Shown one piece after another: positions 1,422-3,543 of a stretch of DNA of 16,506 nucleotides. A model generated the notes under the pieces. The model was given only the letters and a program-made list of their open reading frames with translations, was not told the DNA's origin and searched no databases. The DNA is from a virus. Lineage: Duplodnaviria; Heunggongvirae; Uroviricota; Caudoviricetes. How positions within the stretch are numbered: position 1 is the stretch's first letter; each line of letters begins with the position of its first letter. Location: the IMG/VR virus record IMGVR_UViG_2728369593_000027, positions 1-16,506 of that record. One strand, 5' to 3'. The position numbers and the translations under genes were made by a program.

Positions 1422-2876
1422 TTAAAAATCAGCCTGATTCGGGATCAGTTTTTGCCAGATAACTGAAACGTATTTTGCCTGGTAACGGGCGTCATCAAGT
1501 GCATTATGGCGCTCACCTTCGAATGGAATAGCCGTTCTGGCATCGAAGTCTATGGCTTTCCCCAGCTCAACGATTGTGCGTACATCGCGATCGTTGTAGT
1601 AACGCCACGGGCAGGGGATCCCCTGCCGTTCGTATGAACGGCGCAAAATCGTGTTGTCGAAGTTGGCTCCATTTCCCCAGACCTGAACAAAAAATTCACC
1701 GGAGTTTTCGTCGATAAATTCCCGCAATTGCAACAGTGCATCATCTAACGGGATTTCATCGGTCATAATGGCAGACTGCGCTTCACGTGATTGCTTAAGC
1801 CACCATTTAATGGTGTCACGATCAATGACTCCGCCAGCAGTTTCCAGATCGATAGTCTTACTAAATTCCGGTCCCATATCTCCGGTTTGCGGATCGAAAA
1901 ATATTGCACCTATTGAGATAATCGGGGCATCAGGATTTTTTCCCATGGTTTCAAGGTCGATCATTAGATGGTCACACGTCCTGCTGGTGGATGTGATAAC
2001 GCGATGACCGTTCACCGTAATTAAGGGATCTGCCGTCTCGCCAGTTTCACTATCGCTAGCGTGATCCTGAGCGCCGCCAGCATTCTCCTTGTGTGGATGT
2101 TCAGCGCCTTCCATTTCCTCCGAATCATCTTCCTGAACTTCAACCTGATTCTCTTCATCGAATGTTTCCTGGTATGTTGCGTCGCCCATCACCGCACCAC
2201 AATCAGGGCAGTTGCCGCCGCCGGTCTGACCGCAGGCGGTGCAGACTTTTTCCACTTCCTGTTGCGCCACTGGTTCAGGCTGTTTCGTTTCTGGCTCGTT
2301 TTGTAACGCATTTGGGCTGTTTTGTTCCGCTTTCTGGTCGTTCTGTTCCGTTTCTTGCTGGTTCTGGTTCACAGAATCGCGGGTTTCAATCCCCTTCACC
2401 CATTTCGGATCATTCGGGTCGCTAATCCCTGCAACAAATTCACCACGAGATGCAGCAAGCAACTTATCGGCGTCAGGCTGGCTGATATTGGCTGCCTGCA
2501 TAATTTTGTTTACTTCGTCAGCGGTAACTTTTACCGGCTCTGGTTGTGCGGTCGTGTCAGATGCACCAGTATTTTGTTGTGAACCTGAGTATGTACTGTT
2601 TTTGCGGGCGAAATATTCTTCTTTCGTGATTTCAGTAGCCCCGGCAGCCAGCGCCTTATCCAGACCAGAAAGTTTGTTTGCGCGACCGTATTTTTCGCCA
2701 TCCTTGTCGGTGAAGAGGAAGTAGAACGGCCCCTCACGCTCTACAGATGGTTCAACTTCCACCGCGCATTCAGTTTTTGCGATATCAGAAACCGCAGTTT
2801 CCACTGCATCAGTTTCTGGTACTGACGACGAGAGAACATCAACAGCGCCCAGATCTGTTCCTTCATCCTCAAACAC
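1422..2876 (-). CDS. DnaQ-like (DEDDh) 3'-5' exonuclease with acidic N-terminal region and zinc ribbon
   Basis: 484-aa ORF with GTG start at 2876 (no in-frame ATG upstream). The C-terminal ~190 aa carry Exo I/II/III motifs (DLETMG, NFDNTIL, HNALDDA). Mid-protein CTACGQ...CPDCG is a CxxC...CxxC zinc ribbon. The N-terminal ~280 aa are E/D/Q-rich and low complexity. Confidence 0.8.
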
Positions 2877-2895
2877 GCCCTTTGTAGTCAGGTAT

Positions 2896-3543
2896 TCAGC
2901 AGATATATTTGTTCAGTGCCACAGGATCTTTGTGAATGTCGATCGGACGTTCACGGACAAGGCCAAAAATAGTCTGGCGGTCGTAGCGAAGGGCATCAGG
3001 CTGTTTGCGCATTGATGCCGAGATACGCTTCCAGTCTTCGCGGCCGTTGTCGATAACTTCATTTTTTGCCCAGCGATGGATGCTGCCGTCAATGTTTCCG
3101 GCATCCACATCACCAGGCCAGAGAGCGTAGGCCAGTTCGTCATCCAGTGTTTTCCATGTCTGCTTGTATTCGCGATGAATGGCAGCAATGACCGGGCTGA
3201 TTTTTCCTGTTGAATTTTCAGTGTACTGTTGATTGGCTCTGGCGCGGGCGAGATCAACAACAGACGTGTATTTTCCGGTTTCCTTGCGTTCACCTTCGCG
3301 ACGTTTTTTCCAGATGCGCATCTCTGCCTGAATTTCGGGCCATTTAGCACCAGGAATACATTTATGCTTAACCCACCCAATGGCGTGCAACTTAAGCTCC
3401 GGATACATGGCGTTAACTTCTGGCATTTTCATCAACGCTTCAACGATATGTCCGTCGAATGTTGCCATGTCTTCCTGCAACAATTCCTGTGCGCTAATAA
3501 CCATATCAACGGTGATGTTTTCACATGTGTCGAACTTAACCAT
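2896..3543 (-). CDS. Hypothetical phage protein (215 aa)
   Basis: Intact 215-aa ORF, ATG at 3543, co-oriented with and 20 nt upstream of the exonuclease gene. Non-repetitive protein-like composition; no family recognised. Confidence 0.55.

Follow-up and report, generated by a model that had tools for sequence, protein, structure and literature searches.

An exonuclease gene divided among four open reading frames

The stretch of DNA analysed here (the window; positions 1 to 16,506 of IMG/VR record IMGVR_UViG_2728369593_000027) belongs to a lambdoid prophage that, judging from the flanks of its source contig, is integrated next to ompW. At the window's left end, all on the minus strand, are a lambda-type integrase gene (1-1131, identified by Pfam), an excisionase gene (1109-1357; Pfam Exc, phrog_629) and the subject of this report, an exonuclease gene, which the excisionase gene directly follows with no recT-like gene between them. 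A preliminary description made from the sequence alone had placed two genes here, an unrecognised one of 215 amino acids (aa) and, after it, a 484-aa exonuclease with an acidic N-terminus. The two underlying open reading frames (ORFs) are indeed present in the ORF listing, both open and both on the minus strand (1422-2876, 484 aa from a GTG start; 2896-3543, 215 aa). The shorter of them, however, is no gene in its own right; it corresponds to residues 118-332 of the same 823-aa protein to which the exonuclease ORF belongs.

Four consecutive minus-strand ORFs matched successive parts of a single 823-position PHROGs profile, phrog_2082, annotated as "exonuclease": 3727-3897 matched positions 1-49, 3573-3833 positions 39-107, 2896-3543 positions 118-332 and 1422-2876 positions 340-823. 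The first of these fragments includes the genuine ATG start codon together with the YdfE_N region (about the first 42 codons; PF27430) before it runs out of frame, the second is terminated by a TAA that arises from an inserted base, the third holds the YdfE_C region (PF27432), for which AlphaFold predicted two helical subdomains, and the fourth supplies residues 340-823 of the intact protein. The matches to YdfE_N and YdfE_C, which place the gene in the YdfE family, were taken from precomputed Pfam hits on the source contig; the Pfam copy used for our scan of the window was one without these two models.

When aligned with the intact 2472-nucleotide (nt) gene of enteropathogenic Escherichia coli (EPEC) E2348/69 (L001:3323-5794), the window contained exactly four 1-nt insertions and no other indel, and deletion of the four extra bases in silico gave a single ORF of 823 codons with no internal stop. 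The feature extends over 1422-3897 (2476 nt in this copy) rather than 1422-3543. Alignment to intact copies placed the first insertion in a plus-strand T run at 3768-3770, where an extra T changes AA to AAA on the coding strand. The second, a single base at 3575 outside any homopolymer, creates the coding-strand TAA stop that ends the second fragment, and the third, at 3563, changes T to TT on the coding strand; after these three combined, the original frame is regained. The fourth, a single base at 2902 and again outside a homopolymer, shifts the frame so that the sequence ...NKYI(T/C)EYL... becomes NKYIC followed by a stop.

The ends of the two longer ORFs are consistent with this picture. 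The GTG from which the 484-aa ORF appears to start is an internal valine codon, the repaired translation reading ...TKGVFEDEG..., and the stop of the 215-aa ORF falls inside the conserved ...YI(T/C)EYL... motif, which in every homologue is read through. The 215-aa region was always internal to proteins of 500-1000 aa; no stand-alone version was found among the homologues examined, and no intact relatives were seen that regularly have the two parts as distinct genes. That the two ORFs are open and adjacent is what speaks for two independent genes that would make up an early-left module of a new kind, one for a 215-aa unknown and one for an acidic exonuclease of 484 aa. Because both match, in register, one profile and one orthologous gene, we conclude that the two-gene reading is wrong, and we regard it as extremely improbable. 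Thus, 1422-3897 is best read as one gene (probability about 0.88): the int-proximal exonuclease gene of a Qin/Tritos-type lambdoid prophage at ompW, of the Tritos/YdfE type and RecE-like, which has been cut into four ORFs by four 1-nt insertions and whose product is modular.

Domain organization of the intact protein

In the intact protein YdfE_N is followed by a two-lobed, all-helical YdfE_C, a long, mostly disordered acidic linker that contains a small zinc ribbon, and a C-terminal DEDDh domain. The DEDDh 3'-5' exonuclease domain (1425-1979, minus strand; residues ~300-484 of the 484-aa ORF) was identified by Pfam PF16473 (E 1e-67). The match to this Rv2179c-like family scored 227.8 bits against a cut-off of 27 and ran from position 2 to 177 of the 177-position profile, at residues 303-474, and all five catalytic residues are present: D307 and E309 in MIDLET (Exo I), D407 in GANFD (Exo II), and H457 and D462 in HNALDD (Exo III). 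The preliminary description had called this a proofreading-type, DnaQ-like domain while allowing that its motifs might prove degenerate on alignment; the full-length match over the C-terminal 180 aa of the ORF bears out the assignment, and the motifs are intact. In the AlphaFold model, residues 300-480 adopt a DnaQ-like alpha/beta fold with ten-residue means of the predicted local distance difference test (pLDDT) mostly at 77-95, falling to 65-71 around residues 350-370. The nearest solved structure was that of T4 DexA (8KEL), both by sequence (E 8e-7) and in the fold comparison (Foldseek E 2e-10); RNase T and oligoribonucleases came next. The sequence alignment to DexA covers the Exo I region and ends at ORF residue 437, short of DexA D169. 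Stand-alone versions of the DEDDh domain, of 180-190 aa, are common in Salmonella, Klebsiella, Citrobacter and E. coli. On these grounds the C-terminal domain is predicted to be a genuine DnaQ/DEDDh-type 3'-5' exonuclease domain.

The remainder of the protein was modelled as a chain of smaller units. The 215-aa region was predicted to be all-alpha (pLDDT 84). In the AlphaFold model of the 484-aa part, residues 49-99 fold into a small alpha/beta unit, 119-185 form helices of moderate confidence, ~208-233 make up a small ribbon, and 300-480 constitute the confident DnaQ-like domain. These are joined by disordered acidic linkers (1-48, 100-117, 186-207 and 234-297), for which pLDDT was below 50 at 186-207 and 234-288. 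The ribbon (2178-2255, minus strand) is a zinc-ribbon-like CxxC-x7-CxxC motif formed by C212, C215, C223 and C226, with a local pLDDT of ~81 between disordered flanks. As had been noted before, the first 300 residues of the exonuclease ORF are acidic (61 D/E versus 23 K/R) and contain this ribbon. The suggestion that the acidic region is a special, DNA-mimicking appendage did not hold up: it is a linker shared with residues 453-591 of RecE from the Rac prophage and is predicted to be mostly disordered.

The likeness to RecE extends well beyond the linker. BLASTP of the intact protein against Rac RecE gave an E-value of 9e-61, RecE 278-591 aligning with residues 262-625, with near-identity at RecE 453-591. 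This RecE-like segment (2007-2540, minus strand) comprises a conserved helical stretch, the zinc ribbon and the acidic linker, and phrog_412, annotated "exonuclease VIII", matched residues 113-256 of the 484-aa ORF. Homology ends at RecE 591, 14 residues short of the crystallised RecE nuclease domain (605-866; PDB 3H4R), and neither the window fragments nor the intact homologue P0019 had a Pfam match to Exonuc_VIII (PF06630). Among 57 long homologues of the 215-aa region, the C-terminal nuclease was of the Exonuc_VIII type in 28, DUF3799 in 15 and Rv2179c-like in 11; a RecE-type nuclease thus terminates the majority. Because the similarity to RecE stops before the RecE nuclease domain, the protein appears from its sequence to be a RecE-type scaffold on which a 3'-5' DEDDh nuclease takes the place of the 5'-3' PD-(D/E)XK nuclease.

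Distribution of intact and frameshifted copies

Intact orthologues of 2472 nt (823 aa), with 92-97.5% DNA identity, were found in EPEC E2348/69 (WP_000048378.1), in O157:H7 prophages and in phages Tritos, HannyBb, PhiR42_1 and mEp460_ev081. Of 5426 complete E. coli genomes, 4800 had DNA matches to the gene, at a median of two places per genome, and the intact protein belongs to a cluster of 23,183 sequences formed at 90% identity. The intact gene of viable phages (Tritos, HannyBb), like that of most E. coli genomes, has xis on one side and ydfD/dicB on the other. The repaired ORF of the window differs from the E2348/69 gene at 27 synonymous and 32 nonsynonymous codons, the latter concentrated in variable linker stretches, with none in the DEDDh domain.

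Many homologues of ~325 aa proved to be N-terminal parts of this protein that pass, through different frameshifts, into one alternative frame and end at one shared stop. That frame (2913-3380, minus strand) is open for 155 codons inside the YdfE_C region of the window; it had no Pfam match, and nothing indicated that it is a gene. The idea of a natural domain boundary at ~325 aa was considered and rejected, the C-termini of such homologues being translations of the alternative frame. Many database entries named "exonuclease, partial" of about this length are therefore frameshift products of this gene.

The insertions in the window, in contrast to such recurrent events, were not shared with other genomes. 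Neither those at 3563/3575 nor that at 2902 occurred in any of the 5426 complete E. coli genomes, and the exact pattern spanning the 3563/3575 pair had no match in the species-representative genomes of GTDB, so that a mutation shared by a lineage was rejected. Programmed frameshifting was also dropped, because translation of the intact relatives requires no shift and no slippery motif is common to the four sites. Across the window, comparison with the O157:H7 relative revealed five frame-breaking indels in annotated genes, four of them in the exonuclease gene. The fifth, at 7106, lengthens a run of five A to six in an O-like replication gene (6813-7929, plus strand). This gene, which encodes a protein with a DnaT-like single-stranded DNA-binding domain (347 aa in the O157 relative), is thereby split into ORFs of 113 and 280 aa.

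The early-left locus, annealing proteins and Chi sites

The locus has the Qin-type order of a cI/dicA-like repressor gene, ydfA/B/C-like genes, the DicF RNA, dicB, ydfD, the exonuclease gene, xis and int, and is syntenic with the Qin prophage of K-12 (dicA...dicF-dicB-ydfD-ydfE-int). A promoter and terminator belonging to the exonuclease gene itself were sought by consensus scan, which returned matches at chance level and no promoter-like site upstream on the coding strand. The DicF small RNA is encoded at 4541-4592 on the minus strand (Rfam, 76.7 bits), between a ydfC-like gene and dicB, and five small indels relative to the O157 prophage are grouped in or beside it (4547-4668).

A single-strand annealing protein (SAP, also SSAP) of the RecT, Bet or Erf kind had not been recognised near the exonuclease in the preliminary description, and this absence was borne out both in the window and in the early-left regions of intact relatives. 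Among the 28 ORFs of the window there was no Pfam or PHROG match to the RecT, Red-beta, Erf, Rad52, Sak or Sak4 families, and SAP, single-stranded DNA-binding protein (SSB) and Gam-type families were likewise not found among the ORFs scanned. No SSAP was found in the early-left regions of Tritos, HannyBb and the E2348/69 and O157 prophages. The 215-aa region, which might have turned out to be a known SSAP, does not resemble an annealing protein: the ORF and its family profile had no sequence match in the PDB, and its all-helical prediction contains neither a Rad52-like beta-beta-beta-alpha core nor a RecA-like fold. The proposal that this arrangement constitutes a new kind of module fails on other grounds. 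Zheng et al. (2025, Genome Res, PMC12315714) list in their Table 1 a lambdoid "Tritos" type that has a nuclease, lacks SAP, SSB and anti-RecBCD functions and carries many Chi sites, and they report that DnaQ-type nuclease genes occur next to int, outside canonical Rec modules.

The window is likewise rich in Chi sites (GCTGGTGG), with 9 in 16.5 kb against 0.55 expected, a count that was not reached in any shuffle; the O157 relative also has 9. The sites are at 1394, 1983, 12143, 12200, 12733, 12785, 14217, 14534 and 14555, six on the plus strand and three on the minus strand. Their density is ~2.5 times that of the E. coli genome, which fits the Chi-rich lambdoid classes without an anti-RecBCD gene (Zheng et al., 2025).

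Other features of the window

Besides the broken exonuclease gene, the only nuclease-type genes found by the Pfam and PHROG scans of the window are at 12102-13523 (plus strand), where the gene for a RusA Holliday-junction resolvase comes after that for a DUF968 protein with an HNH-like motif. The DUF1627 gene (plus strand) has a 12-nt in-frame insertion at 8606 relative to the O157 prophage. A moron gene at 10022-10780 (plus strand), in a stretch of low GC content (0.38-0.42), encodes a protein resembling periplasmic solute-binding proteins; the annotation of the O157 relative calls it the AcfC-family adhesin Paa. The moron gene is followed by a hok/sok type I toxin-antitoxin locus (10972-11274, plus strand), in which the sok RNA (Rfam, 103.9 bits) precedes a 70-aa ORF; the last 51 residues of this ORF are Hok-like, and the O157 relative has an annotated hokD at the corresponding place.

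Near the right end are three phage tRNA genes (15755-16004, plus strand) with anticodon CAT, Arg-TCG and Arg-TCT, of which only two are annotated in the O157 relative. The CAT tRNA was assigned to Met by ARAGORN and is annotated tRNA-Ile in that relative; the middle tRNA scored lower in Rfam (42.9 bits), and several short indels separate the two prophages across the tRNA region. Directly after the tRNAs, at 16144-16503 on the minus strand, lies the 3' end of a Tn5/IS4-type transposase gene (dimerisation domain). The O157 relative continues at this point into late genes, so that the prophage seems to have been interrupted or truncated by an insertion sequence.

Possible roles of the intact protein and the state of the window copy

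Expression of the intact gene would come from the early-left operon, once a prophage is induced or a cell is infected, a view we take because no promoter-like site was found upstream of the gene. The protein would be a metal-dependent 3'-5' exonuclease tethered by its RecE-type scaffold and acting on DNA 3' ends, DNA being the proposed substrate because DexA is the nearest relative. By trimming 3' tails at the ends of phage DNA, it might feed or modulate host RecBCD-RecA recombination, rather than work as one half of an Exo/Bet-type pair. This is our preferred guess, at low confidence, and it is favoured because the phage type has neither an annealing protein nor a RecBCD inhibitor and is rich in Chi. 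A broader idea, which we consider doubtful, is that the RecE-type scaffold is a general platform on which nucleases of opposite polarity can be swapped, the DEDDh version, which most E. coli genomes carry and which is never accompanied by an SSAP, having a role distinct from Red/RecET. If true, that role could be that of a defence nuclease of the DexA/HREX or TONDO kind, or of an end-processing factor that makes Chi-rich phages lacking a Rec module dependent on RecBCD, and the repeated, independent frameshifts could reflect selection against a costly nuclease.

Several observations weigh against the account given here. Translation starting at the internal GTG of the fourth fragment could still, in principle, yield a product consisting of the DEDDh domain alone. 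Phage HannyBb, whose gene is intact, has only one Chi site in the 10.6-kb stretch examined, and DnaQ-type 3'-5' exonucleases usually inhibit recombination (PMC12315714), contrary to the function we propose. Finally, the gene is present in multiple copies in E. coli genomes (median 2 places), where it often breaks assemblies or ends contigs and has given rise to many "partial" entries, which speaks for an artefact in the window copy.

The four insertions reflect either recent, real decay or an assembly or consensus error, and both are plausible. As written, the window copy cannot make the full protein, and it is therefore a pseudogene unless the insertions are assembly errors. On the artefact explanation, the strain has an intact 823-codon gene, and the extra bases arose when a multi-copy prophage repeat was assembled in GCA_001605745.1; one gene is retained in this case too, the sole difference being whether it is truly broken. 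We regard an artefact as a possibility of some weight, though short of an even chance. The split ORFs were confined to a single contig (AKYH01000091.1 of that draft assembly) among 153 billion gene positions, and the tested insertions occurred in 0 of the 5426 complete E. coli genomes. The ORF is otherwise perfect, with a DEDDh domain identical in amino acid sequence to that of E2348/69, and the fifth frameshift, in the O-like gene, is a homopolymer change from A5 to A6. Real change is favoured, on the other hand, by the two of the four insertions that lie outside homopolymers, by the full-length host genes that flank the prophage on the same contig, and by the independent recurrence of frameshifted copies in other assemblies, complete chromosomes included, which indicates that real decay of this gene is common. 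Random error would also not usually place four of the window's five frame-breaking indels in a single gene.

A different function for the intact protein, as a prophage defence nuclease, would place it either with DexA-like enzymes directed against phage DNA containing 5-hydroxymethylcytosine (5hmC), as for EcD ("HREX"), or with TONDO-like enzymes directed against the 3' ends of RNA phages. There are precedents for both. Kang et al. (2025, PMC12153337) reported that EcD, an E. coli homologue of DexA, digests the 5hmC-containing DNA of T4 and gives cells protection, and that Escherichia is where DexA homologues are most frequent; a 2026 preprint on TONDO (PMC13344964) described prophage-encoded exonucleases of the DEDDh type that carry unrelated auxiliary domains and protect against MS2 and Qbeta. 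The position of T4 DexA as nearest solved structure, and of the gene at the int end of the operon, a common place for accessory genes, would agree with such a role. EcD is a different protein, however: the primer-encoded termini MIDTET... and ...TIPETY are absent from the window domain and its 120 closest relatives, and identity with EcD (HAK9828821.1) was rejected on this mismatch. A 20-mer search of viral contigs returned a single, irrelevant locus (L007). PADLOC gave a weak, generic DEDDh match to the fragment and none for the intact protein, and the gene, with no promoter-like site upstream on the coding strand, is probably silent in a repressed lysogen, which is not expected of defence. 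We thus consider a defence function unlikely. An anti-defence function, in which the acidic N-terminus would act as a DNA mimic or the nuclease would degrade immune nucleic acids such as the multicopy single-stranded DNA of retrons, seems to us more improbable still. The region is strongly acidic, and Bobonis et al. are said to have described, in 2022, a genetic interaction of RecE with a retron system. The acidic stretch is nevertheless predicted to be disordered and is common to RecE, and so is not specific to this nuclease, and the Pfam, PHROG and PADLOC scans showed no likeness to known DNA mimics or anti-defence families. Searches of the literature on YdfE, and on Rv2179c together with phage, yielded nothing useful. 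A contribution to RecBCD-RecA recombination is the role we tentatively prefer.

Comparison with known systems

We conclude that the window holds a copy, frameshifted or mis-assembled, of an annotated prophage exonuclease gene that is very common, in an arrangement that has already been catalogued. An organization without an SSAP and rich in Chi has been described for Tritos and its relatives, so that the window itself matters little. The case does show that, in decaying or draft-assembled prophages, neighbouring ORFs ought to be compared with full-length homologues before they are named as new genes. The wider family is that of an 823-aa protein which appears to join a RecE scaffold to a DexA-like 3'-5' nuclease and which is matched in ~4800 of the 5426 complete E. 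coli genomes.

The closest counterpart is the exonuclease of phage Tritos (TRITO_27, CAH1234810.1; equivalent to WP_000048378.1 of EPEC E2348/69; phrog_2082). It is the same gene as that of the window, with 94-97.5% DNA identity, the same position (int-xis-exo-ydfD-dicB-DicF...cI) and the same four-part architecture, except that the Tritos and E2348/69 reference copies are single ORFs of 2472 nt whereas the window copy is broken in frame by four extra bases. The window also agrees with the Tritos class of PMC12315714 in having a nuclease, in lacking SAP, SSB and anti-RecBCD genes and in being rich in Chi, over the 16.5 kb of prophage scanned. Unlike Tritos-type phages, it represents a defective prophage, with frameshifted exonuclease and O-like genes and a transposase gene at its right end. 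The cryptic Qin prophage of K-12 carries ydfE (b1577, annotated as a pseudogene) in the same type of locus and with the same gene order; ydfE has been truncated by IS2, with loss of the linker and nuclease, whereas the window copy is full-length but frameshifted.

Comparison with RecE (exonuclease VIII) of the Rac prophage shows both the kinship and the divergence of the family. The two proteins share the N-terminal and middle scaffold, the zinc ribbon and the acidic linker, but RecE has its own N-terminus and a C-terminal 5'-3' PD-(D/E)XK nuclease where the window protein has YdfE_N and the putative 3'-5' DEDDh nuclease. A recT partner would be expected beside a RecE-type gene, yet xis follows the gene in the window, and the same is true of the intact relatives. 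The nuclease domain itself has the fold of the DEDDh subfamily to which T4 DexA (8KEL) belongs, with only ~22% identity to it. DexA and EcD are stand-alone enzymes of ~200 aa, unlike the multi-domain exonuclease of the window, and the TONDO exonucleases (PMC13344964) resemble it in architecture only, in that a DEDDh domain is combined with an auxiliary domain.

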